A stretch of DNA of 64,000 nucleotides from Thermoanaerobaculia bacterium (GCA_033762835.1 JANRLG010000189.1:12185-76184), one strand, 5' to 3'. Shown: positions 42,808 through 57,859, numbered from the stretch's first letter. Numbers and translations are program-made. Notes: a model not told the origin generated them from the letters alone.

Positions 42808-43926
42808 ATGAACGACCCTCGCGACCTACTGCTCACCCTCAATGCCGCCCGCGGGATCGCCCGCGCCGCGGCCTGCCGCTTGGCCTTGGAGCTCGACCGC
42901 TGGTGGCCGCCGGAACGACCCGACGACGAGGCGGCGGCGGAAATCGGTGTGCCTCGACCCGCCTTGCGCCAAGCGCGGGCACTCGCCTGCAAGGCGCGGG
43001 CCTTCGCAGCAGCGGAGCGCGAAAAGGCCGCGGTTCTGGGTGCCCGAGTCATCACCCGGCTCGATCCGGACTATCCGCGCGCCGCGCTCGCGCCGCTCGA
43101 CCTGCCGCCACCGGTGCTGTTCGTGCTCGGTCGCCTACCGGCCCCGGAGCAACCCGCTGCGGCCCTCGTGGGCTCCCGATTGGCCGATCTTTACGGCCGT
43201 GAGGTGGCGACCTTGCTGGGCCGGGAGCTCGCCGCCGCGGGGGTCGTCGTGGTCTCGGGCTTCGCCGTCGGGATCGATGCCGCGGCCCACCGCGGGGCTC
43301 TGTCCGACACGGGGATCGTCCCTCCCGGGGGACCACCGGTGACCCTCGGGGTGCTCGGTTCTGGGCTCGGTACCGACTACCCGAGAGGACACCGGGAGCT
43401 GGGCGCGGCGATCGCCCGTCGCGGCGGCTTGCTCTCCGAGTTCCCGTGCGGAGCGCAACCCCGGCCCTGGCGGTTTCCGGTGCGCAATCGGCTGATCGCC
43501 GCTCTCTCCCAGGCCACCGTGGTGGTGCGCGCTACTCCTCGCTCGGGTTCGCTGGTGACGGCGCGCCTGGCGCTCGAAATCGGCCGCGAGGTGCTGGCCG
43601 TACCGGGGCGCATCTTCGACGATCTGTCGAAGGGCCCCAACGACTTGATCGCCGACGGCGCGCGGCCGGTGCTCGCCTCCCGCGACGTCCTCGAGGCCCT
43701 CGGTCTCTCCCTGGTGGCCAAGGCGCCGCCACCCGAGCCCGCCCTCGAGGGCCTCGTCGGCCGGCTCTTTCGTCGTCTACCGGTGGCTGATCCGGTGACC
43801 GCCGAGGACTTGGCGGGAGAGCTCGGGGAACCGGTGGAAACCGTCCTCGGAGCGCTCCTCGAACTGGAGCTCTTGGGGCGGGTCCGCCGCCAGCCGGGCA
43901 TGGCCTACTCCCGGGGTGTGGCATGA
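42808..43926 (+). CDS. dprA: DNA-processing protein DprA
   Basis: VGSR, VVSGFAVGIDAAAHRGAL, FPVRNRLIAAL, SGSLVTA, AVPG. Confidence 0.95.
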   Translation: MNDPRDLLLTLNAARGIARAAACRLALELDRWWPPERPDDEAAAEIGVPRPALRQARALACKARAFAAAEREKAAVLGARVITRLDPDYPRAALAPLDLPPPVLFVLGRLPAPEQPAAALVGSRLADLYGREVATLLGRELAAAGVVVVSGFAVGIDAAAHRGALSDTGIVPPGGPPVTLGVLGSGLGTDYPRGHRELGAAIARRGGLLSEFPCGAQPRPWRFPVRNRLIAALSQATVVVRATPRSGSLVTARLALEIGREVLAVPGRIFDDLSKGPNDLIADGARPVLASRDVLEALGLSLVAKAPPPEPALEGLVGRLFRRLPVADPVTAEDLAGELGEPVETVLGALLELELLGRVRRQPGMAYSRGVA

Positions 43927-44030
43927 GGTGGCTTGCTTCCGCCAAGAACCCGATGCTACGGTCTCGCGGACCAAGCCCCCCGAGGGAGCCGTGGAATAAC
44001 TCCCTACCCTCTGGCGCTTCACAGGAGACC

Positions 44031-46364
44031 GTGAGCAAGCACCTGATCATCGTCGAGAGTCCGGCCAAGACCCGCACCTTGAAAAAGTTCCTCGGCCGCA
44101 ACTACCAGGTCGAGGCGTCCATGGGCCACATCCGGGACCTGGTCAAGAAGGACCTCGGCATCAGCGCCAACTACGATCCCCATTACGAGGTCCTGCCGGC
44201 CAAGCGGGACGTCGTCAAGAAGCTGCGGCAGGCCGCCGACAAAGCCGACATCATCTATCTGGCCCCCGATCCGGATCGCGAAGGGGAAGCCATCGCCTGG
44301 CACATCGCCGAGGTGCTCGACAAAACCGGCACCAAGACGGTCCAGCGAGTGACGTTCAACGAGATCACCAAGCGCGCCGTGTTGGCCGCGCTCGACAATC
44401 CCCGCGAGATCGACGACAAGAAGGTCGACGCCCAGCAGACGCGCCGTTTGCTCGACCGCCTGATGGGTTTCCGCCTGTCACCGCTGCTGTGGCAGAAGAT
44501 CAAGCAAGGCCTGTCCGCCGGTCGCGTGCAGTCCGTGGCCCTGAAGATGGTCTGCGACCGTCAAGGCGAGATCGACGCTTTCATTTCCGAGGAGTACTGG
44601 AATCTCGGCGTCGACCTCGCGGCCAATGCTCCGCCGCCCTTCAGCGCCCGGCTCGCGACGATCGCCGGCAAGAAAGCCAAGGTCGACAACGGTGAGGACG
44701 CGGCCAAGATTGTCGCCGATCTCAAGGCCGGTACCTTCACCGTCGCAGGGGTCGAACGCAAGGAGGCGAAACAGCGCCCCGGCCCGCCGTTCATCACCAG
44801 TCGCCTGCAACAAGAGGCGGCGCGGCGGTTCGGCTTCCAGGTCAAGCGCACCATGTCGATCGCCCAGGGTCTCTACGAAGGCCGGGAGATTGGCGACCGC
44901 GGGCAGATCGGTCTCATCACTTACATGCGTACCGACTCGACCCGGGTGGCGGACGAGGCCCTGCTCGCCGTCCGCGAGACCATCCGCGCCACCTACGGCG
45001 CCGAGGCGCTGCCCCCCGAGCCGATCCACTACCGCTCGAAAAAGAGCGCCCAGGATGCCCACGAGGCCATCCGTCCGACCACCTTCGACTTGCCCCCGGA
45101 GGCCGTGCGGGCGTTTCTGAAGCCCGAGGAGTTCAAGCTCTACAAGCTGATCTGGGATCGCTTCCTGGCCTCTCAGATGTTGCCGGCCGTCTTCGACGTC
45201 ACCCAGGTGGAGATCACCTGCGGTCGCCTGGGATTGAAAGCCGAAGGCCGTGTGCTCAAGAGTTCTGGCTTCCTGGCGGTCTACGAGGAAACCCCGGACG
45301 AAGACGCCAAAGAGGCCGAGGGCAGCCCCGCCGGGTTGTTGCCGGCCGTGACCGAGGGCGACGTGCTGAAACTGCTCGAAGTCAAGAGCGAGCAGAAGTT
45401 CACCCAGCCGCCGCCCCAGTACAGCGAAGCGACGCTGGTCAAGGCGCTCGAAGAAAACGGCATCGGCCGGCCTTCGACCTACGCTCAGATTCTCGCGACG
45501 CTGACCGACCGCAGCTACGTCGACCGTGTCGAGAAGCGGTTCAAGCCCACGGCCCTGGGTCTGCTGGTCAACCGCATGCTCCAGGGCAGCTTCCACGAGA
45601 TCTTGAACGAGGGTTACACGGCCTCCCTAGAGCTGCAACTCGACGAGATCGAAGAAGGCCGGGTGGATTGGAAGCAGGCCCTGTCGTCCTTCGACGAGAA
45701 GTTGCGCCGAGACCTCGAGACTGCCGGGAAGGAGATGCCGAACGTCAAACGCGAAGGCGTGCCGACGGACGAAATCTGCCCGCAGTGCGGTAAGCCGCTC
45801 CTGATGCGCTTTGGGCGCTTTGGCACCTTCCTCGGCTGCTCGAACTACCCGGAGTGCAACTACACCAAGAACCCGGAGGACGAGGAGGCCCCCGCGACGG
45901 AGGCCGCGGAAGGCACCGAGGCCGCCGAGATCCCCCCGTGCGAGTTGTGCGGTTCGCCTATGGCCCTGCGCCGCAGTCGCTTCGGCACGTTCTACGGCTG
46001 CACGGACTATCCGAAGTGCAAGAACATCCGCAAGACCGTGGCCGAGCAGAAGAAAGCCGAGCCGAAGGTGACCGGGGTGACCTGCCCGGAGTGTGGCCAA
46101 GGCGAATTGCTCGAGAAGCGCTCGCGGCGCGGCAAGATCTTCTATTCGTGCAGCCGTTTCCCGACTTGCAAGTTCGCCCTGTGGGATCGGCCCGTGGCCG
46201 AGGAGTGCCCGCAATGTGGTTCCCCCTACCTGACCGAGAAGATCACCAAGAGGAACGGTCACCAGAAGATCTGCCCGAACGAGGGGTGCGACTACAAGGT
46301 GACCCTGGAAGCAAGCCCGGAGTCCGGGGCCGACGCCCCAGCGTCCGAGGGACCGCCCAACTGA
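44031..46364 (+). CDS. topA: DNA topoisomerase I
   Basis: IVESPAK, DPDREGE, SAGRVQS, ITYMRTDS, C-terminal Zn ribbons; GTG start. Confidence 0.97.
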   Translation: MSKHLIIVESPAKTRTLKKFLGRNYQVEASMGHIRDLVKKDLGISANYDPHYEVLPAKRDVVKKLRQAADKADIIYLAPDPDREGEAIAWHIAEVLDKTGTKTVQRVTFNEITKRAVLAALDNPREIDDKKVDAQQTRRLLDRLMGFRLSPLLWQKIKQGLSAGRVQSVALKMVCDRQGEIDAFISEEYWNLGVDLAANAPPPFSARLATIAGKKAKVDNGEDAAKIVADLKAGTFTVAGVERKEAKQRPGPPFITSRLQQEAARRFGFQVKRTMSIAQGLYEGREIGDRGQIGLITYMRTDSTRVADEALLAVRETIRATYGAEALPPEPIHYRSKKSAQDAHEAIRPTTFDLPPEAVRAFLKPEEFKLYKLIWDRFLASQMLPAVFDVTQVEITCGRLGLKAEGRVLKSSGFLAVYEETPDEDAKEAEGSPAGLLPAVTEGDVLKLLEVKSEQKFTQPPPQYSEATLVKALEENGIGRPSTYAQILATLTDRSYVDRVEKRFKPTALGLLVNRMLQGSFHEILNEGYTASLELQLDEIEEGRVDWKQALSSFDEKLRRDLETAGKEMPNVKREGVPTDEICPQCGKPLLMRFGRFGTFLGCSNYPECNYTKNPEDEEAPATEAAEGTEAAEIPPCELCGSPMALRRSRFGTFYGCTDYPKCKNIRKTVAEQKKAEPKVTGVTCPECGQGELLEKRSRRGKIFYSCSRFPTCKFALWDRPVAEECPQCGSPYLTEKITKRNGHQKICPNEGCDYKVTLEASPESGADAPASEGPPN

Positions 46365-47464
46365 CCCGGCGGAGGGCCGCGACCAGCGTCGCGGCCCTCG
46401 TCCTTCTGGTTTCGGCGGGCTGCTTCGAAGAGCCGATCCGCGAGGATCTGACGCTCACCTTCGCGCCCGGCGACCGGGTGACGTTGACCCTCGAAACGCG
46501 GTTGTCGGACCCCAGCCGGGAGGAATCCACGGCCGCGGTGCGCGCCCGTCTCGACGAGGAACGGCTCCGGCTGCAAAGCGGCGACGACGACTGGACGGCC
46601 CGCTTCGGTGAGCTCGCAGCGAGTCGTGACTGGGTCACCCACGGGCGTACGGACGGCGTGCTGACGGCAGTCGACCGGCGGGCCGAGCTCGACCTCGGGC
46701 GCGACCCGGAGGCGCTGCGACGGTTCTTCGGAGACACGCTGGTGGCGGCGACCTGGCGGACCACGGCCGAGGGTCGCGAGTTGTTCCTCGAACCCCTGCC
46801 GGCAGGCCGCGCCACCTACCGCGAGCGCCAGCGGCTGACGCGCCGGCTCGAGAGCTGGAGCGCCGCCCTAGCGAGCTACTTCACGACCGCGGGCGAGCTC
46901 TACCAGTACCTCGAGGTGAACCCCGAGCGGCGCCGGCCGGTGTTCGGCGTGATCCTCGAAGACGCCTTGGTCGAAGCCGACCGGGGCGATGAGGAGAGTC
47001 TGCTCGCGGCCGAAAGAACTCTGGTCGACGCCCTCGGCGACGCCATGGGAGAGGTTCTCGAGGTGCTCGCGGTGGAGCCCGGCGAGGCCTACTCGATGAA
47101 CGAGATCTCCCGGTTGGTCTTCGACCCGTTTCCGGCCCGCGTCCGCATCGAGTTACCGGCGGCCCCGACGGCCGTCGAAGGATTCGTGGCGGCAGGCTCG
47201 GAGCGCGCCTGGCAAGTTCCCGAGGTGTCGTTGTGGAGCGCCCTCGAAGCCCTCGCGACCGAGCGACTTTCGCCCGATCCCCTGGCCCTGCTGGTCGCCT
47301 CCGAAGTCGGCCTGCTCGGACGCACCGAACCCGCGCCGCTGCTGAGCCTCGATGCCGTGGCCGACGGCGAGCTGAAGTACCCGGTCGATGCCGATGCCAC
47401 GGAGCTGCGCCGCGAGTTGGAGGCGCAGTTGGCGGCGGCGCCGGTGTACCGGCTGGCCTGGTGA
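46361..47464 (+). CDS. Hypothetical lipoprotein (apparent CTG start)
   Basis: RRR n-region, hydrophobic core, lipobox SAGC; CTGA overlap with the topA stop. Confidence 0.65.
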   Translation: MTRRRAATSVAALVLLVSAGCFEEPIREDLTLTFAPGDRVTLTLETRLSDPSREESTAAVRARLDEERLRLQSGDDDWTARFGELAASRDWVTHGRTDGVLTAVDRRAELDLGRDPEALRRFFGDTLVAATWRTTAEGRELFLEPLPAGRATYRERQRLTRRLESWSAALASYFTTAGELYQYLEVNPERRRPVFGVILEDALVEADRGDEESLLAAERTLVDALGDAMGEVLEVLAVEPGEAYSMNEISRLVFDPFPARVRIELPAAPTAVEGFVAAGSERAWQVPEVSLWSALEALATERLSPDPLALLVASEVGLLGRTEPAPLLSLDAVADGELKYPVDADATELRRELEAQLAAAPVYRLAW

Positions 47465-47467
47465 GGG

Positions 47468-47547
47468 TCGGTCGAACGGAAGTTCGGCCGCTACCTCAAG
47501 AAAAGCAATGACTTCCGGGGGTAGCGGCCGGCCTTTAGGCCGGCCGA
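47468..47547. repeat. REP/BIME-like inverted palindrome doublet, copy 2
   Basis: Reverse complement aligns with 21684-21760 including the spacer; lies between convergent genes. Confidence 0.8.
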
Positions 47548-47562
47548 TCTGCGGCTTCAGAC

Positions 47563-48906
47563 CTACTGCCGGCCACTGACCACCGCCATCGACTCATCCA
47601 GCGCCGCCAAGAAGCGGTCGAGCTGGTCGTACCCGATCGTCAACGGCGGCTCGACTCGCAGGGTACGGGCGTTGATGTAGGTACCGCCGATCAGGATCTG
47701 ACGCGCGAAGAGTTCCTTCGCCACCTCGTAACCCTTCTCGTTGTCGCTGAACTCGAGGCCGAGCATGAGGCCGCGGCCGCGCCATTCGACGAGAAGGTCC
47801 GGGTACTTGGCGCCCAGTTCGGCGAATTTGCCCAGCAGGTACTCGCCCTTTTCGCCCGCCTGGCGCGGCAGGTCTTCCTCGAGCAGCACGTTGAGGGTGG
47901 CGATGGCGGCAGCGCAGGCCACCGGGTTGCCGCCGAAGGTGGTGGTGTGGAGGAACGGGTTCTCGATGTAGCGCTCCCAGGTCTTGGGCGTGCCGACGAC
48001 CGCGCCGATGGGCATGACACCGCCGCCGAAGCCCTTGCCCAGCGCCATCAAGTCCGGCGTCACGCCGTCGTGTTCGCAGGCGAACATCTTGCCGCTCCGG
48101 CCCATGCCGCTCTGGATTTCGTCGAAGACCAGCATCGCACCGTAGCGGTCGCACAGCTCGCGCGCCGCCGCCAGGTAACCCGGCGGGGCGACGTTGATGC
48201 CACCTTCGCCCTGGATCGGCTCGATCACCACCGCGGCCACGCGGTCGCCGGTGAAGTCGAAGGTCTTCATCATCTTGGCGAGCACGTCGGTGTCGCCCCA
48301 CGGCAGGTGGGTCCAGCGCAGCAGCGGCAGGAAGGGCTCGCGGAAGACCGCCTTGGAAGTGCCGCCCAAGGAACCGAGGCTCTTGCCGTGGAAGGCCCCC
48401 ACGGTGCCGATCAGGTGGTGCCGACCGGTCGCCAGCATGGCCATTTTGAGGCACCCTTCGATGGACTCGGTGCCCGAGTTCGAGAAGAAGGCGTAAGTGA
48501 GATCCCCGGGAGTGATCAGCGACAGCAGGTGGGCGAGGTAGGTGCGCAGGGGGTCGATCAGCTCCTGGGAGTGGATCGCCTGGCGGTCGAGCTGCTCGCG
48601 CACCGCCTTCATGACCTTGGGGTGGCGATGGCCTACGACGTAGATGCCGTAGCCGCCCAGGATGTCGATGTACTCCCGGCCGTTGATGTCGCGGAAGACT
48701 GCGCCCTCGTCTTCCCATTCGACCGCCGTGTAGTCGGTAGAGACCGATTTGCGGTATTGCAGGAAGCCCTCGTTGACGTGGTCGGTCCAGTAGCGGACGG
48801 ACTCCTCGACGACTCGCGCCCGCTCGTCCGGCGAAAGTTCTTTCTTGCCGATCAAATCGAGGACATAGGCGGATTTGCGCGCCGCCGCGGCGAGGTCTTG
48901 GGCCAT
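47563..48906 (-). CDS. patA: Putrescine aminotransferase (class III PLP)
   Basis: HVNEGFLQYRKSV, GGYGIY.VGHRHP, HSQEL.DPLR, FDEIQSGMGRSGK, GKGFGGG, ENPFLHTTTFGGNP. Confidence 0.88.
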   Translation of the reverse strand: MAQDLAAAARKSAYVLDLIGKKELSPDERARVVEESVRYWTDHVNEGFLQYRKSVSTDYTAVEWEDEGAVFRDINGREYIDILGGYGIYVVGHRHPKVMKAVREQLDRQAIHSQELIDPLRTYLAHLLSLITPGDLTYAFFSNSGTESIEGCLKMAMLATGRHHLIGTVGAFHGKSLGSLGGTSKAVFREPFLPLLRWTHLPWGDTDVLAKMMKTFDFTGDRVAAVVIEPIQGEGGINVAPPGYLAAARELCDRYGAMLVFDEIQSGMGRSGKMFACEHDGVTPDLMALGKGFGGGVMPIGAVVGTPKTWERYIENPFLHTTTFGGNPVACAAAIATLNVLLEEDLPRQAGEKGEYLLGKFAELGAKYPDLLVEWRGRGLMLGLEFSDNEKGYEVAKELFARQILIGGTYINARTLRVEPPLTIGYDQLDRFLAALDESMAVVSGRQ

Positions 48907-48966
48907 GATCTTCCTCCGGAATCGTTGGCCCGACTCTATCGCGGCGCGGGGGCCGATCCGCGCGGC

Positions 48967-51483
48967 TCAGGCGCTCCGGCGGCGATTCCACGCCGCGGCG
49001 CCCGCGGCCAGCAAAGCGAGTCCCGCTCCCGAGCCCCGCGGGGGGAATCGCCGCGGAAAGGGCGTCAGCTCGCCGTCGCCGAGCACCACGACCCCCGCCC
49101 AGGCTTCCGCCGGGTATCCCGCTGCGAGCAGCTCGGCGCGCACGGCGCGGGCCGCCGTCGAGACCCCGCGGCCCTGGGCGAGCTGGCGGTAGAAGCGGGT
49201 GAAAAACGCCCGGGCATCGTCGTCGCGCAGAGGCCACAGGCTGGCGACGACGGTGCGCGTCCGCCGGCCCTCGAAGAAGGCCCGTGCGAGGCTCAAGACC
49301 CCTTCGCCGCGCAGGACAACGCCGGCGGCACTTTCGCAGGAGGACAACACGACGAGCTGGCCGGCGACCGGCAGGCCCGTGATCTCCCCGAGTTCGAGCC
49401 GGCCGTCGGCGGTTTCCCCGCCGCCCAGGTAGATGGCCGAGCGCTCGGCGTCGTCTTCATCAACGACGGCGTGGGTGCCGAAGTGGAGGACGCCCGCGAG
49501 CTGCCGCGGCTGGCCGAGCAAGATCGCCTCCGCTGCCGACTCGCCGAGGTCGAGCCGGCTGCCCGCCCCCAGGATACCGGCGATCTCCCGGCCCTCCCGG
49601 CGCGCGTGGGGCAGGGGCCGCAGGATCTGGCCGCCCGGCCCCGCGGGCAACGGCGCCGGGTCCGCCACGATCCACCCCGGCCGGTCCGGGTGCTCCGCGG
49701 CAGCCTGCCGCCAGCGCTGCCAGAGTGTCGCCGAGGGTACCCGGGTGACCGCGAAACGCTCGCCCAAGGGCGGCGCCTCGGCCCGTTCCCGCAGCAGCTC
49801 GAAGGGCAGCTTGTGCAACACGTCGTCGGGCACCAGCACCAGCCGACGAACCGTTCCCGGCAGCTCGGCCAAAGCCGGCCCCAGCAAGTCCCCATAAAGC
49901 GCCACCGCCGTCTCTTCCTCCCGCCCATCCCGCCCCGTCGTCAACCCCACGAACGTCCCTATCGCCTGCCGCCAGAACGTGCGATCCCGCTCCAGCCGGT
50001 GGACTTTCACCCCCTCCCGCGTGACCACCAAGAGCCAGCTGCCACCCCCGAAATCCCCGGACCAATCCACCCAAGGTGCGATCTGGTAGGAGAGCAAAGC
50101 CTCGTCCGGCGCCAAGGCAGCGCGGACCTCGTCGAGGGTCGCGAAGTCGTCGGCCGTGGGAGCGGAGGTCGACAGCTGATCGAGCAGCGAGCGGGCGCGC
50201 ATGCGCTCGGTGACCTGGAAGGCGGTACCAACAGAATCGCTCGTTTCCTTTGCCGCCGAGGCCATGTCCAGGTGCCGGCCGGACAGCCAGAGATAGTCGT
50301 CAACCCAAGTGGAGAAGAGCTCCGCTCTGCGATTTCGCTCTTTCTGACCCTTTCGGAGCTGTTCGATCTCGCTCAGGGCTTGACTCGCCTGCTCGCTGCG
50401 CTGGCTCGATGGCGAATACTCCCACGAAGCCCTCATCAGCTCCCTCAGTGCGTTAGTCTCCGTCAGAGCGTCCCCTATTCCACGGGCAAGCCTGACTGCC
50501 TCTTGAGCTGTGGCAAAGGCCGCATCCGGTCGAGTTCGGCCGAGTACCCGCGCCAAGCCACTCAGGCAAAAGGACCGAGTTCTGTCATCTGGCGCTGCGT
50601 CGAGACATGCCTCGAAGTGGCGTTCGGCAGTTTGGCCCGCTGAGAGGGCCGCCAGTATCCAAAGGGAGTAGGCTTTGCTCTGGTCCTGAGAGTTCAGTCT
50701 GGCCGTGGCTTCGACTGCTTGCACGGCGACCTCGCGCACAGATTCACGATCGACTTCGACCGTATTTAGCATCCACTTGTCAAATGCAGATCTGGCAATT
50801 CCGTATCTTGCCATCGCTGTCTCGCCAGGCGTCCTGGCCGACTGAAGTGCTTCGCGAAAAACAGCGCCAGCTTCATCGAAGCGTCCAAATTCCAGGAGGG
50901 CGTGGCCCTGGTAACGCAACACCTCGAGCCACCCAGCGGTTTTCTCCACCCCCACGATATTTCGAATGGCATGGATGGCGACGAGTTCGAAATCCAGTGC
51001 TCCGGTGTATTCTGCTGTCATAAGCAGGTCGATGAATTCTTTCAGGCGCGGGAGTGGCTGCGTCTTCTGAACCGCCGCATCCACTGCCTGGGACAGCTGG
51101 TCTTCGGCCGCGCTTCTTCGATCTAACTTCAGGTAGAGTCGAGAAGCATTGAAACCGGCTAGAACATCGCCCCACCCCGGCTCGCTGCTGAGTTCGAAAA
51201 GTCTCGCTGCCTCAATAAACAGCTGACTGGACTTCTCGAACTCTTCTCGCTCCTCAAACGACTGGCCTTCGAGGTAGGCAAGGCGCGGATCGGCTGGGTA
51301 GCGGTCGCGGACGGCCACCAGCAGCGAAGGAAGAGCTGGGTCGGCGAGGTGTCGGTAAACACAAGAGAGCGCAGCGCTTCCTAGGGAAGGTTCGTAGGCT
51401 GCCAAACAGCTCTCGACTTCCAAGGCCGCCCCAGCTGTGGTGCCGCTGAGTATCAGGATGACTGCTAAGCAGAGACGGTTCAC
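48967..51483 (-). CDS. Exported TPR-like + CHAT (caspase-like) protease
   Basis: Signal peptide; ERMRARSLLD, LVPDDVLHKLPFE, HFGTHA (His), LSSCESA (Cys), VASLW, WAGVV; hydrophobic tail + RRR. Confidence 0.9.
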   Translation of the reverse strand: MNRLCLAVILILSGTTAGAALEVESCLAAYEPSLGSAALSCVYRHLADPALPSLLVAVRDRYPADPRLAYLEGQSFEEREEFEKSSQLFIEAARLFELSSEPGWGDVLAGFNASRLYLKLDRRSAAEDQLSQAVDAAVQKTQPLPRLKEFIDLLMTAEYTGALDFELVAIHAIRNIVGVEKTAGWLEVLRYQGHALLEFGRFDEAGAVFREALQSARTPGETAMARYGIARSAFDKWMLNTVEVDRESVREVAVQAVEATARLNSQDQSKAYSLWILAALSAGQTAERHFEACLDAAPDDRTRSFCLSGLARVLGRTRPDAAFATAQEAVRLARGIGDALTETNALRELMRASWEYSPSSQRSEQASQALSEIEQLRKGQKERNRRAELFSTWVDDYLWLSGRHLDMASAAKETSDSVGTAFQVTERMRARSLLDQLSTSAPTADDFATLDEVRAALAPDEALLSYQIAPWVDWSGDFGGGSWLLVVTREGVKVHRLERDRTFWRQAIGTFVGLTTGRDGREEETAVALYGDLLGPALAELPGTVRRLVLVPDDVLHKLPFELLRERAEAPPLGERFAVTRVPSATLWQRWRQAAAEHPDRPGWIVADPAPLPAGPGGQILRPLPHARREGREIAGILGAGSRLDLGESAAEAILLGQPRQLAGVLHFGTHAVVDEDDAERSAIYLGGGETADGRLELGEITGLPVAGQLVVLSSCESAAGVVLRGEGVLSLARAFFEGRRTRTVVASLWPLRDDDARAFFTRFYRQLAQGRGVSTAARAVRAELLAAGYPAEAWAGVVVLGDGELTPFPRRFPPRGSGAGLALLAAGAAAWNRRRSA

Positions 51484-51887
51484 GGAGGTGGAATCGGGTC
51501 AACTTTGCCGGTCCCGCTACCGGTTCCTGGGGGAGAAACGCCATTCGTTTCTTCCCAGCCGAAGCCGGTGCCGATACCCGTCGAACCAGTTTGGATCTCC
51601 ACGGTCCCGGTGCTCCCGTCACCCTCCTCTCCCTCGTTGTTCCGGGGAGCATTCGCCATCAACATGGCGAAGCCTTCTTGGCCCTCCTGAGGGGGCGGCG
51701 GCGACGGGCTCTTGCCGGCCGGAAACACGAATCGTTGATGGTAACGCCTCGTCTGAAACTCAATGAAGAAGAAGTACTTACGGCTACCCCACTTGAAGAA
51801 GGGGATCTTCACCGCGGCGGGGCCGAAGTTGCCAGAAGATGTCGCGCCGGTCCCGGCGCCTTGAGACCCAGAATCTGAACTCGCCAT
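51480..51887 (-). CDS. Small Gly/Pro-rich protein translationally coupled to the CHAT gene
   Basis: GGAGG SD; GTGA overlap with the CHAT start; NGVSPP motif. Confidence 0.65.
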   Translation of the reverse strand: MASSDSGSQGAGTGATSSGNFGPAAVKIPFFKWGSRKYFFFIEFQTRRYHQRFVFPAGKSPSPPPPQEGQEGFAMLMANAPRNNEGEEGDGSTGTVEIQTGSTGIGTGFGWEETNGVSPPGTGSGTGKVDPIPPP

Positions 51888-52053
51888 ACCAAGATCCTCC
51901 CCGATTTTCGGGCAAGCCTACGACGGATCAGCCGTCGTGGCGCATCGCGCGGAAACTGCTGCGGATGCAGTCGAGGACGATGGAGAGGCTGGAAGATCCT
52001 CACAAACTAGAAAAAGACCCCGACGACTGCACTTCCCGCCAACGGCTCCCCGA

Positions 52054-52082
52054 TTGACCGTATGACCGGGTCGGCGTACTCT
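52054..52082 (+). promoter_or_regulatory. Sigma70-type promoter for the two small peptide genes
   Basis: TTGACC-17 nt-TACTCT, the same hexamers as the atp promoter. Confidence 0.6.
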
Positions 52083-52114
52083 CTGCTTCGCTTGATTCAA
52101 GAAAGGGGCACGGG

Positions 52115-52330
52115 TTGTTCAGTCTGACACTTATCCTCGCCTTGTTTTTCGGCAGCCTCGGTGCAATGCAGAAGAGTCCTCCCTCGCAAGCTCCTGGAGT
52201 TAGACTCGATGCGGCCACACAAAATGGAGTTACCCCACCGGCAGATGGACCCGGGTCCGGTCCCCCCGGCAGTACCGCATGGAGCGAGGGAGTCGCTCCT
52301 CCAGACACAGGCCACCCTGAGGACAACTGA
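52115..52330 (+). CDS. Small secreted Pro/Gly-rich peptide precursor 1 (71 aa)
   Basis: GAAAGGGG SD with TTG; signal peptide; NGVTPP and EGVAPP motifs. Confidence 0.6.
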   Translation: MFSLTLILALFFGSLGAMQKSPPSQAPGVRLDAATQNGVTPPADGPGSGPPGSTAWSEGVAPPDTGHPEDN

Positions 52331-52421
52331 GCGAATAGGAAAGCCCGTCTACGATGCGGCGTCCCACGTCCGCCGGCTTTTCCGAGGCCAGATCGGTTCA
52401 AGAACGAAAGGGGCTGCGACC

Positions 52422-52610
52422 ATGAAGAGCGCTTTCCTGATCTTCGCGCTTCTGTTCGGCCAACTCGCCGGGCTTGCTTGGGAGTTCTCCGTTGCGGCAG
52501 GGTCGACACCGGCGGATGACGACAAGTCTGCTGGCCCTCCAGGACAGACTGGGGTCACACCGCCGGATATCGACCCTTATCCGGGCCCGAAGCCTCCCCC
52601 TGCGGGTTAG
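52422..52610 (+). CDS. Small secreted Pro/Gly-rich peptide precursor 2 (62 aa)
   Basis: GAAAGGGGG SD with ATG; signal peptide MKSAFLIFALLFG; GPPGQTGVTPPD. Confidence 0.65.
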   Translation: MKSAFLIFALLFGQLAGLAWEFSVAAGSTPADDDKSAGPPGQTGVTPPDIDPYPGPKPPPAG

Positions 52611-52634
52611 CCAGCGGTCGAAGCCCCTCCCCCG

Positions 52635-53384
52635 TCACTCCTCCAGCGTCAATCGAAACGTCGGCGGGCAGGGCGAGCGGGTGCCGTCGGGGAAGACGGC
52701 TTCCACTTGCCACACGAGGTGGCTGGCGGGGCGGAGTTTGGTGAGCTTCTCGGCCGGGACTTCGTACTCAGTCGCGGTCAGGCCGGTGACCTGGACCACG
52801 GTGTCGAGGCCGGAGGTTCGGATCGAGAGGTCGTAGTAGACCGCCTGGGGGACGGGTTTCCAGGCGACCTTGAAACCCTTGCGGGTGACGGGGGCGTTGT
52901 CGCGTACCAGGGATTCGATCAACGAGCCGGTCGCGGCGGGCGGGCCCGGCACCGCGGGTGACGAGGCGTCGGGCACCGGCCGGTCGCCCGTGCCGCGGTA
53001 TCCCGGGTCGTCCGTGGGCGGCGACTTGGGCAGGAACACGGCGAAGCCGAGGGCGCCGACCAGGAGGGCGGCGGCGGCGGCCCAACGTGGGTCCCACCAA
53101 CTCGAGCGGGCCGGGCGCAGCGGCAACGGGGCCACCGTGCCGGAACCTGCCGTGTCGTTCAGCTTCTCGCGCTCGAGGGCGAGCGCCAGGCGCCATTCCT
53201 CGGCACATTCGGCGCAGAGCGCCAAGTGATCCACCAAGCGGGCGGTAACCTCGGGAGCCAGGCGGCCCGCCGCGGCGTCCCAGATTTTCTCCGGGTCGGG
53301 ATGGTCGGCGGGCGGTGGGCCGACCGCGGGCGCCTGCCAGGCGGCGCGCAATCGGTCGATCAAAAGGTCGTCTTCGGTGTTCAC
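52635..53384 (-). CDS. Membrane anti-sigma factor (zf-HC2, TM, periplasmic beta domain)
   Basis: HLALCAEC (HxxxCxxC), TM WAAAAALLVGALGFAVFL; GTGA coupling to the sigma gene. Confidence 0.85.
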   Translation of the reverse strand: MNTEDDLLIDRLRAAWQAPAVGPPPADHPDPEKIWDAAAGRLAPEVTARLVDHLALCAECAEEWRLALALEREKLNDTAGSGTVAPLPLRPARSSWWDPRWAAAAALLVGALGFAVFLPKSPPTDDPGYRGTGDRPVPDASSPAVPGPPAATGSLIESLVRDNAPVTRKGFKVAWKPVPQAVYYDLSIRTSGLDTVVQVTGLTATEYEVPAEKLTKLRPASHLVWQVEAVFPDGTRSPCPPTFRLTLEE

Positions 53385-53938
53385 GGCGCGTGTCCCTTGT
53401 CCTCTAAACATTGGCGGAGATCCGCCATGCCACGGTAAATCAAGTTCTCCGCCTTCTTGGCGTCCCAACCCAGCCGCCGCCCGACATCGACGACGCTGTG
53501 GCCTTGCAGGCGAAGCGTCACAGCTTGGCGCCGGGAGGCGATCAGGGCGCCTAGACACCCGCGAATCGCCGAACCCAGCTCGCGGCTCGCCGCGTGATCG
53601 CTGGGACCGGGAGATCCGGTGGGTAACTCGATCGCACCCGCTTCATCCTCGATCGGCACTTCCCGGCGTCGGCGACGGCGTCGAATTTCATCGACTACCG
53701 CGCTGTACGCCGCTCTCTTCAGGTAAAACGAAGAGAGCGCCGTTTCCTCCTCACGCCGCCGTAACACGTCCACCACCCGCAGCAACGCCACCTGCACCAA
53801 GTCCTCGGACTCGGCCGTCAGCCAGCTCGGGCAACTGTGATTCACCGCCCGCGTGAGAGCCGCCCGCAACTCGCGGTAAAGCGAGTCGGGAAGCTCACGC
53901 CGTGCTGGATCTCGAACAACTGAAGGGACCGTCATCAC
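53381..53938 (-). CDS. ECF RNA polymerase sigma factor
   Basis: SEDLVQVALLR, AYSAVVDEIRR, region 4 AENLIYRGMADLRQCL. Confidence 0.9.
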   Translation of the reverse strand: MMTVPSVVRDPARRELPDSLYRELRAALTRAVNHSCPSWLTAESEDLVQVALLRVVDVLRRREEETALSSFYLKRAAYSAVVDEIRRRRRRREVPIEDEAGAIELPTGSPGPSDHAASRELGSAIRGCLGALIASRRQAVTLRLQGHSVVDVGRRLGWDAKKAENLIYRGMADLRQCLEDKGHAP

Positions 53939-54072
53939 CGCCCGGGAGTCTAGCCCGGATTGCCCCCGGGCGAACTTTCTCTGCCCGCCTGACAGATCGA
54001 CGCCCCGGATTCCGTCGTCATGGTTTGTGGGCGAAAGGATCGCTCACGACGACCCCCGAGGAGGGAGCTCCC

Positions 54073-54507
54073 ATGACCGTGATCGACCTTTCCGTGTTGT
54101 CCGCCTTCTGGCTCGGAGGCCATGCCCGCGCCGCCGCCGAGCGCCTCTACGCCAACCATCCCGACTGGGCGCTGCCCGTGGCCTGGCGTTGCGATTTTCG
54201 GCGCCAGCTCGACACTTGGGTGGGCTGCGAGCAGATCACCCCCGTCGACGCCGACCAGATCTGGAACGCCGTGCTCTGCCAGGTGGCCGACCGCGAGTAC
54301 TTCTGCGGCTCGCTCGACGTGCTCGAACTCGTCGCCCGCCATGGCCTCGGTCGGTTCGACGCCGAGGTGGTGTCCTTCGCCCGCGCCCGTGGCCAACGCT
54401 TCCACACCGCCAACCCCCGCCTGGCGGCACTCTTTCCCGACCTCGCCACCCTCCTAACCGACGTCGCCCCCGAGCGCCGCGTCTGGGTCGCCCGAAAGGC
54501 GGCGTGA
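54073..54507 (+). CDS. Orphan, degenerate PIN-domain (VapC-like) protein
   Basis: MTVIDLSVL, WALPVAWRCDFR, FDAEVV, HTAN; SD GAGGAGGGAG. Confidence 0.65.
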   Translation: MTVIDLSVLSAFWLGGHARAAAERLYANHPDWALPVAWRCDFRRQLDTWVGCEQITPVDADQIWNAVLCQVADREYFCGSLDVLELVARHGLGRFDAEVVSFARARGQRFHTANPRLAALFPDLATLLTDVAPERRVWVARKAA

Positions 54508-54514
54508 TCATGAC

Positions 54515-54543
54515 TTGTATTCAGCAAAAAAATCTTGTACGGT
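54515..54543 (+). promoter_or_regulatory. TA operon promoter
   Basis: TTGTAT-17 nt-TACGGT in an AT-rich patch with a CTTGTA direct repeat. Confidence 0.5.
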
Positions 54544-54562
54544 CCAAGGCGGAGGTTTCATC

Positions 54563-54784
54563 ATGCGCACCACCGTCACCGAACGGGGCCAAACCGTCGT
54601 CCCCGCGAAGATTCGTCGCGACTACGGCATCGGAACGCAGTCGACCCTCGAATGGATCGACGACGGCCACACGATCCGCGTCGTTCCGCTCCCGCCGGAC
54701 CCGATCCGCGCGGCCCGCGGCAGCTCCAAGGGGCTCGGGCGACGCCTCGCGGAGGAGCGGGAACGTGAGCGCAGCGAAGCCTGA
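54563..54784 (+). CDS. AbrB/MazE/SpoVT-family antitoxin
   Basis: MRTTVTERGQTVVPAKIRRDYGI; GGAGG SD. Confidence 0.88.
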   Translation: MRTTVTERGQTVVPAKIRRDYGIGTQSTLEWIDDGHTIRVVPLPPDPIRAARGSSKGLGRRLAEERERERSEA

Positions 54785-55193
54785 TCGCTTCTTGCTCGAC
54801 ACCTCCGCGGTCCTCGTCCTGACCGACGAAGATCCGGGCTGGGACTTCGTGGAGAACCTGCTCGAGCGCGCCCGCGAGGGCGAAATCGAGGTCGTGCTCT
54901 GCGCGGTGTCGTTGATGGAGCTGTACTACGTCGCGTTACGCGAACAGGGGGAGGACCCGGCCGCGCGACTAGTGGCCTTGGTCAAGGCGTGGCCGATCTC
55001 GTGGATCTACCCCGATGAGCGCATGCTGCTCGCGGCGGGCCGGTTGAAGGCCCAGCATCGCCTGTCCTTCGCCGACGCCGTGGTGGCCGCCGCCGCGGCT
55101 CGGCGGCGGGCCGTCCTGGTTCACCGCGACCCGGAATTCGAGGGTTTGGCAGCGGCCGTGGCGCGCCAGGCTCTGCCCTACCGGGGGCGCTGA
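54765..55193 (+). CDS. vapC: PIN-domain toxin (VapC)
   Basis: LLDTSAV, SLMELYY, LSFADA, LVHRDPEF. Confidence 0.9.
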   Translation: MSAAKPDRFLLDTSAVLVLTDEDPGWDFVENLLERAREGEIEVVLCAVSLMELYYVALREQGEDPAARLVALVKAWPISWIYPDERMLLAAGRLKAQHRLSFADAVVAAAAARRRAVLVHRDPEFEGLAAAVARQALPYRGR

Positions 55194-55210
55194 GAAGGTC
55201 GAACCGTGGG

Positions 55211-55489
55211 TCAGACCTCGCCGATCGAGAACATCCGATCGAGGTCGTGGCGCGAGAAGACACGGAAGGCGGTCAAGGTCTCCGACGCCGTGATGCCGGC
55301 GACCTTGAGCATTTTGCCGGTCACCACGTCGGCCAAGGCGTCCGGGCTCGTGGTGCGCACGATGGCGACCAGGTCGAAACGACCGGCGACGGAGTAGACC
55401 TCGGTGATGCCGGTGATCGAGAGCAGCTCCTGAGCCACCTCGTTGATGCGATCCCGATCGACGTTCAAGAGCACGACGGAGCTGACCAT
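55211..55489 (-). CDS. Stand-alone Lrp/AsnC ligand-binding domain protein
   Basis: EVYSVAGRFDLVAIVR, SETLTAFRVFSRHDL. Confidence 0.85.
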   Translation of the reverse strand: MVSSVVLLNVDRDRINEVAQELLSITGITEVYSVAGRFDLVAIVRTTSPDALADVVTGKMLKVAGITASETLTAFRVFSRHDLDRMFSIGEV

Positions 55490-55556
55490 GGCGATTCTCC
55501 TCCCAGGGGTTCCAACGCCACCGGGCCGGCCGGAAGCGCCTGCTTATAATGCCATC

Positions 55557-56918
55557 ATGACTGCCCACTCCCCGCTCCACGTCCTCGGCGGTGGCCTCGC
55601 CGGCACCGAATGCGCCTTTCAACTTGGCCGCCGGGGCCTGCCCGTGGTGCTGTGGGAGATGCGTCCTACGAAAGCCACCCCCGCCCACAAGACCGGCGAC
55701 TTGGCCGAGCTCGTGTGCTCGAACTCCCTGCGCAGCGACGACCCGTTCCACGCGGCGGGGTTGCTCAAGCGCGAGATGGAGGCCTTCGGCTCCTTGGTCG
55801 TCGGTGCCGCGCGGCGGGCGGCAGTACCCGCGGGCAGTGCCCTGGCGGTCGATCGCGAGCGCTTCGCCGCCGAGATCCACGCCGGACTGGCGGCGGTATC
55901 TACCATCGAGATCCGGCGCGAAGAGGCGACGACGCTCCCACCCGGCGAAGTCGTCGTGGCGAGCGGTCCGTTGACCTCGGAGGCGTTGACGGCGTGCCTC
56001 CAGGCCCTCCTGGGCAGCGAATGGCTCTACTTCTATGATGCTCTGGCGCCCATCGTTGAGGCCGATTCCCTCGCCTTCGGCCGGCTGTTCGCCCAGTCGC
56101 GCTGGGATAAAGGGGATGGTGCCGACTACCTGAACGCCCCCTTCGACAAAGAGGGTTACCTGGCCTTCTACGAGGCCCTCACCACGGCCGAGTTGGCACC
56201 CCTCCACGACTTCGAGCAGGCGCTTTTTTTCGAGGGCTGCCTGCCGATCGAAGAGCTCGCCCGGCGCGGCGTCGACACCCTGCGGTTCGGGCCCATGAAG
56301 CCGGTGGGGCTGCGCGGCCCCGACGGCCGCCGGCCCTACGCCGTCGTGCAGCTGCGCCAGGAGAACCTGGCCAAGACGCAGTACAACCTGGTGGGCTTCC
56401 AGTCGCGCATGAAGTGGGGCGATCAAGGCCGCGTATTGCGGATGATTCCGGGGCTCGAAGCGGCGGAGTTCGTGCGCTTTGGCTCGGTGCACCGCAACAC
56501 GTTCGTGAACTCGCCCACGCACCTCGACAAGCTGTACCGCTTGAAGGCCGAACCACGGGTACGCTTGGCGGGGCAGCTGACTGGCGTCGAGGGTTACCTC
56601 GAATCCGCGGCCACGGGCCTCGCGGCGGCCCTCCACGTGGTGACCGAACGCGCGGGCCGGACGCCCGAGCCCTTCCCCCCGACGACCGCACTCGGCGCCC
56701 TCGTGCGCCACCTGACGGAGTCGGACCCGCGCCATTTCCAGCCTGCCAACGTCAACTACGGTTTGTTCGAGGAGCTGCCCGAGCGGGCCAAGAAGCTCGA
56801 CCGCCGCCGCGTCTACGCCGAACGCGCTCACCGCGAGCTGCTCGCCTGGGCCGAGCGCCAGGGGCTGGCGGTCGACGCGAGCAAGCTCATTCCCGAACTC
56901 ACCGAGGTTCCGGCTTGA
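55557..56918 (+). CDS. trmFO: Folate/FAD-dependent tRNA (uracil-5)-methyltransferase
   Basis: GGGLAGTE, AELVCSNSL, FFEGCLPIE, FGPMKPVGL, GVEGYLES. Confidence 0.97.
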   Translation: MTAHSPLHVLGGGLAGTECAFQLGRRGLPVVLWEMRPTKATPAHKTGDLAELVCSNSLRSDDPFHAAGLLKREMEAFGSLVVGAARRAAVPAGSALAVDRERFAAEIHAGLAAVSTIEIRREEATTLPPGEVVVASGPLTSEALTACLQALLGSEWLYFYDALAPIVEADSLAFGRLFAQSRWDKGDGADYLNAPFDKEGYLAFYEALTTAELAPLHDFEQALFFEGCLPIEELARRGVDTLRFGPMKPVGLRGPDGRRPYAVVQLRQENLAKTQYNLVGFQSRMKWGDQGRVLRMIPGLEAAEFVRFGSVHRNTFVNSPTHLDKLYRLKAEPRVRLAGQLTGVEGYLESAATGLAAALHVVTERAGRTPEPFPPTTALGALVRHLTESDPRHFQPANVNYGLFEELPERAKKLDRRRVYAERAHRELLAWAERQGLAVDASKLIPELTEVPA

Positions 56919-57859
56919 GCCGGGCCGACAGTTTGCCGGCCTTGGTGGCCGGATATCTCCGGCATCTCGAGGGCGAACGAAATTTCTCTGCCCATACGGT
57001 CAAGGCCTACGGCACGGACTTGGCGGCCTTCGTGGAGTTCGTGGCCGCGGACGTGCTCGGCAAGCCACCGCGAGAAGTCCTTCCCGACGAGGTCGATCGC
57101 CTCGCGGTGCGCTCCTTCGTCGCCCAGGCGAGCCGCCGCGGTTTGGCGAAGTCGAGCCAGGGGCGTGCCCTGTCCGCCGTCAAGGGCCTGTTCCGCTGGG
57201 CCTGCCAGGAAGGTCACCTGGTGCTCAACCCGGCGATTTCGGTGAAGACGCCGAAGACCGAGAAGACGTTGCCGCGGCACTTACGCCCGGGCGAGACCGA
57301 AACTTTGCTCGAAGCGCCCGACACTAGCCAACCTCTGGGTCGGCGGGACCGCGCGTTTCTCGAGCTGCTCTACGCCACGGGGTTACGGGTCGGCGAGCTG
57401 GTGAGTCTCGATTGGACGGATCTCGATCTGTCCGCGCGGGTGTTACGGGTGGTGGGGAAGGGCGGCAAGGAGCGTATGGTGCCCTTCGGCCAGCCGGCGG
57501 CGGCGGCCCTGCGGGCCTGGCTGGCGGATTGGCAGGAGATCCGCGCCTTGGCCCGCACGGCAAGCGCGGAAGAGCCCGTGTTCTTGAATCACCGCGGCGG
57601 CCGGCTGACCGACCGTTCCGTGCGCCGCCTGCTCGACGGCCACGTGGAAGCCGCGGCCCTGGCAACCGGCGTCCACCCCCACACCCTGCGCCACACCTTT
57701 GCCACCCACCTGCTCGAGGCCGGCGCGGATCTACGCTCGATCCAAGAGCTACTCGGCCACGCCTCCTTGTCCACCACCCAGCGCTATACCCACCTCGACG
57801 TCGATCGCCTGCTGGCGGTCTATCGCCAGAGTCACCCGCGGGCGCGCGGGGAGAGTTGA
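56915..57859 (+). CDS. xerC: Tyrosine recombinase XerC
   Basis: RDRAFLELLYATGLRVGEL, GKGGKER, HPHTLRHTFATHLL, LGHASLSTTQRYT; trmFO-xerC-hslVU context. Confidence 0.92.
   Translation: MSRADSLPALVAGYLRHLEGERNFSAHTVKAYGTDLAAFVEFVAADVLGKPPREVLPDEVDRLAVRSFVAQASRRGLAKSSQGRALSAVKGLFRWACQEGHLVLNPAISVKTPKTEKTLPRHLRPGETETLLEAPDTSQPLGRRDRAFLELLYATGLRVGELVSLDWTDLDLSARVLRVVGKGGKERMVPFGQPAAAALRAWLADWQEIRALARTASAEEPVFLNHRGGRLTDRSVRRLLDGHVEAAALATGVHPHTLRHTFATHLLEAGADLRSIQELLGHASLSTTQRYTHLDVDRLLAVYRQSHPRARGES

Follow-up and report, generated by a model that had tools for sequence, protein, structure and literature searches.

A low-GC, hypervariable cassette within a sigma/anti-sigma/TPR-CHAT protease module of a Thermoanaerobaculia bacterium is probably exchanged by recombination

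Introduction

In the Myxococcus DdvS/DdvA system, a sigma factor of the extracytoplasmic function (ECF) type adjoins a zinc-finger-type, single-pass anti-sigma factor, and DdvA fuses the zinc-binding anti-sigma (ZAS) domain, a transmembrane helix and a periplasmic TPR-CHAT part with conserved His and Cys residues in one chain. In the mechanism proposed for DdvA, a signal activates the CHAT domain, which cleaves the anti-sigma factor, and RseP then follows; in the passages of the source available to us, its authors state that the signal is unknown (PMC11506125). Here we describe a locus with the same kinds of components in a stretch of 64,000 nucleotides of a Thermoanaerobaculia (Acidobacteriota) genome (GCA_033762835.1, JANRLG010000189.1:12185-76184; hereafter the window, one strand, with positions counted from its first letter). 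In this locus, the TPR half of a TPR-CHAT protease gene probably belongs to a hypervariable, low-GC cassette that is exchanged by recombination inside a conserved signalling module.

As in DdvS/DdvA, the ECF sigma gene of the window adjoins the gene of an anti-sigma factor, here putatively of the zinc-finger, single-pass type, and the TPR-CHAT protein, which by its predicted location would also be periplasmic, carries conserved His and Cys residues. The DdvA fusion, however, is not found in the window, where the genes are split: the TPR-CHAT protein has its own signal peptide-like N-terminus and a C-terminal hydrophobic helix, a small protein gene is interposed, and the periplasmic domain of the anti-sigma factor comprises only ~120 aa. 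The locus resembles a split form of DdvS/DdvA in which cleavage would take place in trans. Allelic hypervariability of the TPR part is not mentioned in the available DdvA passages (PMC11506125).

A second related system is the craspase, which according to excerpts of two sources comprises type III-E Cas7-11, the TPR-CHAT protease Csx29, its substrate Csx30 and an ECF-type sigma factor (PMC10028731, PMC11506125). What it has in common with the window is a TPR-CHAT protease tied to an ECF sigma factor, in the craspase through cleavage of a small partner protein; whereas the craspase is cytoplasmic and RNA-guided, the window locus is without CRISPR components, its protease is predicted to be exported and its anti-sigma factor is membrane-bound. 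Separase, which is eukaryotic and cytoplasmic, also combines a TPR-like helical domain with a caspase-like domain, as found in the window. Its small, largely disordered partner securin binds along the protease as an inhibitor. An inhibitor partner of separase is also mentioned in the excerpts of the DdvA source (PMC11506125). By analogy, securin-like binding is a possible model for the small protein encoded upstream of the window protease.

The staphylococcal agr specificity groups form a pherotype cassette comparable to that of Bacillus comQXP. In comQXP, as far as the excerpts of the source go, polymorphism is concentrated in a block made up of the small peptide gene(s) and the 5' part of the receptor gene, which encodes its sensor half; the 3' part, with the catalytic half, and the regulator downstream of it are conserved (PMC6334282). 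In the window, as in these two systems, the break falls inside the receptor gene and the alleles are discordant with their flanks. In contrast to both, the putative receptor is a protease placed on a sigma/anti-sigma pair and not a histidine kinase, the host belongs to the high-GC Acidobacteriota, no peptide processing gene is evident and a peptide ligand is only a candidate. In the literature searched, neither the split arrangement of the genes nor an exchangeable TPR half was found to be described.

Results

A composition break inside the TPR-CHAT gene

On the minus strand of the window, the gene order is ECF sigma, anti-sigma, a 1.15-kb gap, TPR-CHAT and a class-III aminotransferase gene (Table 1). 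The anti-sigma (52635-53411) and TPR-CHAT (48967-51483, minus strand, 838 aa) genes are separate open reading frames (ORFs), as is also the case in the 18 related loci that have both on one strand. Of 20 related loci, 17 have matches to sigma, anti-sigma and CHAT together on the same strand, and one more has the anti-sigma and CHAT only.

From hand counts on two lines of sequence, the first-pass annotation had proposed a GC break inside the CHAT gene. The counts are exact (50/60 GC at 49561-49620 and 27/60 at 50761-50820) and the break was recovered in the complete profile, which is not smooth: GC at third codon positions (GC3) changes from 0.62 over codons 1-419 to 0.88 thereafter. The maximum-likelihood change point falls at codon 419 (log-likelihood gain 38.9), with a support interval of two log-likelihood units that covers codons 386-424, corresponding to 50211-50325. 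The start of the break had been placed at 49860, and total GC does fall from 0.77 to 0.68 near 49850, but GC3 holds at 0.82-0.86 up to about codon 526 and steps down only at ~50.25 kb, ~400 nt further on. The drop near 49850 is a composition change within the catalytic half, from which the synonymous step is separate. The composition break is largely synonymous: GC at first and second codon positions (GC1/GC2) also differs between the halves (0.67/0.47 in the N-half versus 0.77/0.55 in the C-half), and the largest gap, 0.26, is found at synonymous sites.

The low GC had further been said to extend through the small ORFs as far as the anti-sigma gene, in agreement with what is observed. Values of 0.54-0.64 in 300-nt windows continue to ~52.55 kb, and the low-GC tract as a whole spans ~50.23-52.61 kb, so that its right end lies 25 nt beyond the anti-sigma stop codon; the C-terminal part of the anti-sigma gene has a GC3 of 0.88-0.95. 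Over 50290-52600 the GC content is 0.598, against a genome mean of 0.681 (standard deviation 0.0275 in 2-kb windows), and only 0.89% of 10030 genomic 2-kb windows are as low. The best-phase GC is at most 0.73 in 15 consecutive 450-nt windows (50217-52317), and values of at most 0.72 are found in 8.6% of such windows genome-wide. About 25 further low-GC islands are present in the genome.

A comparison with paralogous CHAT loci had been suggested at the outset. None of seven paralogous CHAT genes of the same genome has a comparable GC3 step (differences of 0.03-0.08, and of -0.02 for one truncated ORF of 268 codons). The step is therefore not a general TPR-versus-CHAT composition effect. At the homologous boundary in other loci, the N-half GC3 is lower by at least 0.10 in 8 of 19, and there is no step or a reverse one in 6; the window has the largest N-/C-half step (0.26) when set against these 19. 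A genome-wide ranking of GC3 change points in ORFs of at least 500 aa was not used, since stop-to-stop ORFs reach into out-of-frame upstream DNA and the ranking is confounded, all of its top matches having a low-GC3 5' end.

Homology to the closest relative is lost at the same edges

The metagenome protein closest to the CHAT C-half is P0001, and the DNA around it is referred to as L048. L048 aligns with the window over 55177-52610 (77.3% identity), 52002-51843 (79.3%), 50226-49002 (78.2%) and 47467-38002 (80.6%). Nothing aligns by blastn across 50227-51842 and 52003-52609, so that 51843-52002 is the sole stretch within 50226-52610 that blastn aligns to L048 (79.3% over 164 nt). The identity jumps within ~15 nt near 50230, after a family-invariant motif and a short linker. 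This left homology break coincides with the GC3 change point, and the right break lies, like the end of the low-GC tract, 25 nt past the anti-sigma stop codon. L048 has its own low-GC segment in the same place (GC 0.59-0.66), and the GC3 of its CHAT gene is 0.70 and then 0.89.

The two halves of the protease differ accordingly in their relatives. The C-half (residues 425-838) is 76% identical to P0001 at the amino acid level, and the other listed matches (the best 120 of 726) reach at most 55%. In an alignment of 37 sequences, the C-half is 76% identical to P0001 versus 48-55% to the other members, while the N-half is 29% identical to P0001 versus 25-34% to the 35 other members. Furthermore, in a search with the N-half, P0001 scored 72.8 bits, below all 25 listed matches (102-124 bits), which are 28-41% identical and whose sources, where named, are Thermoanaerobaculia/Acidobacteriota. 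Source names of homologues of the C-half place the lineage of the window in Thermoanaerobaculia. A search of a 5.8-billion-protein set with the N-half gave a single match, the list of candidates being saturated by TPR words. In the whole family alignment there are 79 invariant columns, only 3 of which precede residue 350.

The same contrast is seen in a genus represented by four species: all six pairs are 53-65% identical in nucleotide sequence over the first ~300 CHAT codons, 78-90% identical beyond them and mostly 80-95% identical in the sigma and anti-sigma genes. As every species pair of the genus is affected, hypervariability of the sensor half is a trait of the orthologue group.

Separate trees of the two halves, which the first-pass annotation had also recommended, gave a divided answer: the split between the window and P0001 is far deeper in the N-half, but both trees join the two sequences. 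In the C-half tree they stand together with a support of 100, terminal branches of 0.24 and 0.22 and a stem of 0.76. In the N-half tree they are joined with a Shimodaira-Hasegawa-like approximate likelihood ratio (SH-aLRT) support of 87, terminal branches of 1.69 and 1.67 and a stem of 0.19, a topology that carries a long-branch warning. When either one was left out, the other was placed deep in the N-half tree and without support. The depth of the split amounts to 24% of that of the clade in the C-half versus ~90% in the N-half, so that the N-half alleles could be old, the sisterhood of the pair not being rejected.

These comparisons also bear on the idea of a one-off horizontal island, in which a lower-GC donor outside the lineage would have replaced part of the operon. 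Such an island would agree with the GC of 0.60 against 0.68 for the genome, with the GC3 of 0.62 against ~0.88, with a rank among the lowest 0.9% of windows and with the ~25 other low-GC islands. It is nevertheless very unlikely, for the N-half genuinely belongs to the same protein family, as the 25 listed matches at 28-41% identity show, the family of the small upstream protein is confined to the same loci, and L048 and several orthologues have low-GC3 N-halves of their own in the same place. No close low-GC donor of the N-half was found in the protein-set searches.

Recent exchange of the cassette in metagenome contigs

Two biofilter metagenomes with two study codes (X1 and X2) contain a related lineage that is ~8-9% diverged from the window in the flanks. 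Within the cassette, the pooled X1 stretches listed in Table 1 show only 27 differences over 2064 nt (1.31%), versus 475 over 5682 nt (8.36%) in the flanks (Fisher p = 5e-37). For X2, the corresponding values are 1.34% and 9.0% (p = 2e-40). The change from one regime to the other is carried by single contigs (2467 nt in X1 and 2820 nt in X2), in which divergence is low up to 52003 and high over 52396-54095 and 52396-54121, respectively. The summed depth of the flanks equals the depth of the junction contig, which indicates that no second abundant strain is present there.

One cassette allele thus occurs in two lineages whose flanks differ by 8-9%, and the allele of L048 is a different one, which argues for recombinational exchange. 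We consider it highly probable that the cassette has been exchanged between lineages by recombination. The exchanged core consists of the TPR half (codons 1-419), the gene of a 135-aa protein and a 160-bp island at its 5' side. The earlier proposal, according to which recombination has moved a module that is joined to a catalytic half and to a sigma/anti-sigma pair, both of them conserved, is borne out in this respect by the breaks against L048 at 50226 and 52610 and by the divergence in X1 and X2 (1.3% vs 8.4-9.0%).

A break of this kind might also be an artefact, arising either from a chimeric metagenome assembly of two strains or from the different amino acid make-up of TPR and caspase-like regions; the genome is indeed a draft of 324 contigs, and GC1 and GC2 differ between the halves as well. 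Yet contigs of a near-identical strain (X5) cross 50226 with 0-1 differences, and with none over 50042-50323, which argues against a chimeric window. The same position is bridged by contigs of X1 (49970-51356) and X2 (50013-51025), and at the other side X1 and X2 contigs run from 52396 over the right edge (52610-52635) into the anti-sigma and sigma genes. L048, an independent assembly, has the same structure. As to amino acid make-up, the largest difference is synonymous (0.26) and none of the seven paralogous TPR-CHAT genes shows the step. An artefact is hence the least credible of the explanations, and an extremely improbable one. In a further metagenome, X6, a contig with 7% divergence matches the window as far as precisely 50226, and its final 54 letters fail to match; contig cover is missing in X6 over 50413-51616, which is not evidence of absence.

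A more serious rival dispenses with exchange. The TPR half and the upstream gene would diverge fast in place under diversifying selection, for instance in an arms race over phage or competitor ligands; the low GC3 would stem from AT-biased mutation together with hitch-hiking, and the sharp edges would simply be domain borders. This view fits the N-half tree, which keeps the window and P0001 together on very long terminal branches, the hypervariable first ~300 codons in all six pairs of the related genus, the recurrence of a GC3 deficit in 8 of 19 loci and the position of the edge at 50226, just after a family-invariant motif and linker. It does not account for the contrast in X1 and X2, where divergence in the flanks is six to seven times that in the cassette (8.4-9.0% vs 1.3%), and the stem of the pair in the N-half tree is shorter than expected (0.19 vs 0.76 in the more slowly evolving C-half). 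In addition, synonymous divergence jumps too, and not non-synonymous divergence alone: synonymous substitutions per site (dS) between the window and L048 are 0.57-0.77 in the genes of the sigma and anti-sigma factors and in the C-half of CHAT, versus ~2.1 in the alignable N-half and 1.5 in the small gene, a comparison that is confounded by strong GC3 bias and poor N-half alignment. Divergence in place as the whole explanation therefore appears improbable, although fast divergence may be the source of the alleles.

For the exchange of old alleles, which we favour, the low GC3 has to be accounted for. We infer that it marks long-lasting divergent alleles that evolve fast, under diversifying selection, and recombine only at their edges, and not a low-GC foreign donor; with little recombination inside the cassette, GC-favouring forces would be weak there.

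Besides the confounded dS values, several points weigh against recombinational exchange and the role proposed for the cassette below. In X1 and X2, no single contig spans the left junction (gap 49901-49969); because of this gap, and since the positions of the 17 differences in the left cassette contig are unlisted, the left edge can be narrowed down only to the interval from 49.9 to 50.23 kb. Both metagenomes sample the same type of habitat and may stem from a single campaign, so that they may be non-independent, and their contigs are metagenome assemblies. For the window-P0001 pair, the N-half trees leave sisterhood with extreme divergence in place unrejected. Three post-hoc approximately unbiased (AU) tests on distant family members gave p = 3e-61, 0.047 and 0.38; with one strong rejection and a reciprocal test at 0.38, shuffling of modules across the whole family is undemonstrated. 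The cause given above for the low GC3 is a deduction. No signal peptide is seen in the 135-aa protein, whereas the protease is apparently exported, and ligand binding, protease activity and anti-sigma cleavage are all predictions from sequence or model.

Domains and predicted fold of the TPR-CHAT protease

The CHAT domain was recognized by Pfam (PF12770) over residues 524-803 with 162.3 bits (cutoff 24, E 2e-47), covering profile positions 2-289 of 289, and TPR_12 was also matched in the protein, with 34.9 bits (cutoff 30.1). Residues H667, H671 and C716 do not vary across the family alignment (37 of 37 sequences); the catalytic His is presumably one of the two, as judged from the position of the motif.

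In the AlphaFold2 (AF2) model (predicted local distance difference test, pLDDT, 85.5; predicted template modelling score, pTM, 0.82), helices extend over residues 2-437 and an alpha/beta domain over 450-802. The predicted fold is thus a helical TPR superhelix followed by a caspase-like alpha/beta domain. When this model was submitted to Foldseek, DdvA was the top match (8rw5, 8rot_A; E 1.3e-12, 16% identity), ranks 3-17 were chains of the craspase, and ranks 18-34 included separase structures. The Foldseek probability was 1.00 for DdvA, the craspase TPR-CHAT protein and separase, with template modelling scores (TM-scores) of only 0.3-0.4, as expected for flexible multi-domain chains. A sequence search of the PDB with the TPR-CHAT protein gave 0 matches.

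A signal-like hydrophobic stretch, detected with a hydrophobicity window only, is found at the N-terminus of the window protein and of 28 of 37 family CHAT proteins, and the protease is predicted to be exported, periplasmic and membrane-tethered. At its other end, residues 818-838 (48967-49030) form a hydrophobic helix followed by an Arg-rich tail (RRR), of which the family consensus keeps an Arg pair; the CHAT protein of the closest relative has a similar terminal hydrophobic stretch and basic tail. This C-terminal helix and its Arg tail could be a membrane anchor or a sorting signal.

The sigma and anti-sigma genes

The sigma gene lies immediately upstream of the anti-sigma gene and overlaps its start. 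Its product contains Pfam Sigma70_r2 and r4_2 and matches NCBIfam TIGR02937 (sigma70-ECF) with 51.6 bits (cutoff 42.9); a sigma match is present in 18 of 20 related loci. The protein is 88% identical to its L048 copy (non-synonymous substitutions per site, dN, 0.07; dS 0.57). In spite of this identity, the gene (53381-53938) has an intermediate GC3 of 0.71, with stretches of 0.60-0.65.

The anti-sigma protein, which is 69% identical to the L048 copy, combines an N-terminal zinc-finger-like motif (H-x3-C-x2-C), one predicted transmembrane helix and the short putative periplasmic domain mentioned above. Orthologue alignments begin at residues 1-3 counted from the Met at 53411. The scores are below the cutoffs for both Pfam zf-HC2 (18.8 vs 22.2) and the NCBIfam anti-sigma model (17 vs 100). 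In the juxtamembrane linker, the motif (P)VYRxG is conserved among the anti-sigma proteins and is a candidate target for cleavage by the CHAT domain. We also considered whether the small proteins could act as decoys for a cleavage site in this linker, and rejected this: PP-x(0-2)-D follows the transmembrane helix in only 1 of 20 anti-sigma proteins, that of the window.

The small upstream protein and the 160-bp island

The 135-aa ORF overlaps the CHAT start by 4 nt. It has a homologue in L048 (36.7% identity, E 5e-20), and its N-terminal ~50 residues are conserved relative to L048 by mostly synonymous DNA changes; on both grounds, it is a real gene. Scans with Pfam and NCBIfam gave no match. 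The small proteins encoded upstream of CHAT in related loci form a family with a C-terminal aromatic module, the motif [ST]PP(D) and a Pro-rich tail, for which a search of 1.84 billion representative proteins gave 13 clusters at E<=1e-3. Some members, of 150-162 aa (L041:5578-6060, P0125, P0130 and P0131), have the aromatic-plus-[ST]PPD module twice, and the window protein looks like a degenerate two-module form. When a complex of CHAT residues 25-838 with the 135-aa protein was predicted, the scores of 0.09 and 0.02, compared with a mark of 0.32, spoke neither for nor against binding. A lax tblastn search of the small ORFs against the loci and the genome yielded, beyond the L048 match of the 135-aa ORF and the pepA-pepB pair described below, only Pro/Gly-rich noise.

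The conserved island contains ~115 nt upstream of the small-protein gene and the first 15 codons of this gene. Its upstream part is probably regulatory and contains a conserved hairpin of 6-7 bp. The island was not found in 21 other loci, nor elsewhere in the genome. In the window and L048, the island was compared with the region upstream of the sigma gene for a common motif composed of a 5-mer, a spacer and a 4-mer, and none was found, and no sigma-70-like promoter was found in 51400-54200.

The secreted-peptide ORFs pepA and pepB

Two further ORFs stand in the tract between the island and the anti-sigma gene. PepB has a signal peptide-like N-terminus, a GVTPPD motif and a Pro-rich tail, and 8 nt upstream of its gene there is a Shine-Dalgarno-like box, GAAAGGGG; the same box precedes pepA. 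PepA starts with TTG, has a signal peptide-like N-terminus and two GV[TA]PP motifs, and is 37% identical to PepB (E 2.8e-4).

A homologue of PepB that is 95% identical was found in the 5.8-billion-protein set. A second allele (P0122) has the same first 27 residues bar 3 changes, and its mature part is unrelated to that of PepB, yet again carries PPPD and a Pro tail; such alleles, with a conserved leader and a variable mature part, are suggestive, on sequence grounds only, of pheromone precursors. In the lineage of X1 and X2, the 392 nt between 52003 and 52396 are substituted by 87 other letters within a single contig, so that pepA is missing, and pepB falls in the diverged part of this junction contig. 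In X6, a contig over 52124-52518 shows 9 differences in 395. PepB is absent from L048. PepA and pepB are separate presence/absence or allelic units in one slot and vary independently.

The peptide genes had been assigned to the same cassette as the receptor domain. This holds for the co-oriented 135-aa gene, which travels with the TPR half, but not for pepA and pepB, which are on the plus strand and form separate variable units.

In four distant relatives (L039, L040, L043 and L047), the gap between anti-sigma and CHAT contains larger ORFs of 189-428 aa on the CHAT strand, with N-termini that are signal peptide- or lipoprotein-like. These ORFs suggest that variable exported proteins are generally accommodated in this slot.

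Proposed function and significance of the cassette

The favoured explanation may be outlined as follows. Homologous recombination in conserved flanks would swap old, very divergent alleles, with the CHAT catalytic half as the recombination site on one side and the 5' island or the end of the anti-sigma gene on the other. The TPR half of the exported protease would sense a ligand, upon which the CHAT half would clip the anti-sigma factor in trans (site-1 cleavage); intramembrane proteolysis would then follow, and the ECF sigma factor would be released.

Whether the cassette sets the specificity of a sensor is, in our estimate from the sequences, an even question. That locally encoded peptides are the ligands is doubtful; the ligand could also be a foreign molecule, as proposed for DdvA. 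Somewhat less plausible still is a complete peptide-based system of self/non-self discrimination (pherotype or kin recognition), in which an exported caspase-like TPR-CHAT protein would be the receptor, specificity would be set by the TPR half, the small protein and the [ST]PPD peptides, and ligand binding would trigger anti-sigma proteolysis and release of the ECF sigma factor. If true, this would be a protease-receptor counterpart of agr and comQXP in a Gram-negative, high-GC phylum.

The exchange itself provides direct sequence evidence that, in a bacterial TPR-CHAT protease, the half that putatively faces the ligand is hypervariable and can be exchanged as a unit, and the natural series of alleles on fixed catalytic halves is a resource for mapping TPR-CHAT specificity. 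The split architecture, with sigma factor, anti-sigma factor, small protein and putatively exported TPR-CHAT protease, is common in Thermoanaerobaculia. Finally, a within-gene GC3 step in a high-GC genome placed the recombining sensor cassette to within tens of bases, and such a step is a cheap signature with which to scan for diversifying sensor modules.

Features of the locus and its neighbourhood

Table 1. Features of the module in the window and stretches compared with the X1 contigs.
Feature	Position	Strand	Remarks
ECF sigma gene, 185 aa	53381..53938	-	conserved chassis
Membrane anti-sigma gene, 258 aa counted from Met at 53411	52635..53411	-	conserved chassis
pepB, 62-aa ORF	52422..52610	+	variable unit; strand opposite to CHAT
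pepA, 71-aa ORF, pepB paralogue	52115..52330	+	present or absent by lineage
Conserved 160-bp island within the variable tract	51843..52002	-	blastn alignment to L048
Small protein gene, 135 aa	51480..51887	-	directly upstream of CHAT, co-oriented; travels with the TPR half
Variable TPR-CHAT half: signal peptide-like N-terminus and helical TPR-like region, codons 1-419	50227..51483	-	GC3 0.62
Conserved TPR-CHAT half: caspase-like CHAT domain, C-terminal hydrophobic helix, RRR	48967..50226	-	GC3 0.88
X1, aminotransferase	47491-48944		111 differences/1454
X1, CHAT C-half	49042-49900		84 differences/859
X1, cassette, left contig	49970-51356		17 differences/1387
X1, cassette, right contig	51327-52003		10 differences/677
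X1, pepB, anti-sigma, sigma	52396-54095		129 differences/1700
X1, further upstream	54098-55189		92 differences/1092

The neighbours of the module are topA, a VapBC-like pair and trmFO, and no CBASS or CRISPR genes are adjacent. A tRNA scan of 46500-55500 found none. The sigma/anti-sigma/CHAT module sits between topA and a trmFO(gid)-xerC-like pair (43923-46364, 55443-56918 and 56414-57859). In other bacteria, topA and the trmFO(gid)-xerC-like genes form one housekeeping cluster, and the module as a whole therefore looks like an insertion.

The class-III aminotransferase gene just downstream of CHAT (47563-48906, GC3 0.90) is missing in L048, where 153 nt (L048:12320-12473) stand in for 1535 nt; it is present in the lineage of X1 and X2, with 7.6% divergence. 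Exactly at the left edge of this indel, at 47468-47555, lies an interspersed repeat of ~80-90 bp with a hairpin, GGCCGGCC, which has 60 blastn matches across the contigs of the genome at ~75-93% identity. Over the repeat, the depth of metagenome contigs is ~30-fold higher, with many loose ends. A joint from 47546 to 48991 in X1 and X2 was set aside, since its short side of only 21 letters is too weak to use.

On the plus strand, divergent from the sigma gene, 54515-55193 contains a MazE/AbrB-like antitoxin ORF followed by an ORF with a PIN domain (VapC-like). Near this VapBC-like pair, an X1 contig carries 1957 additional letters between 55189 and 55200.

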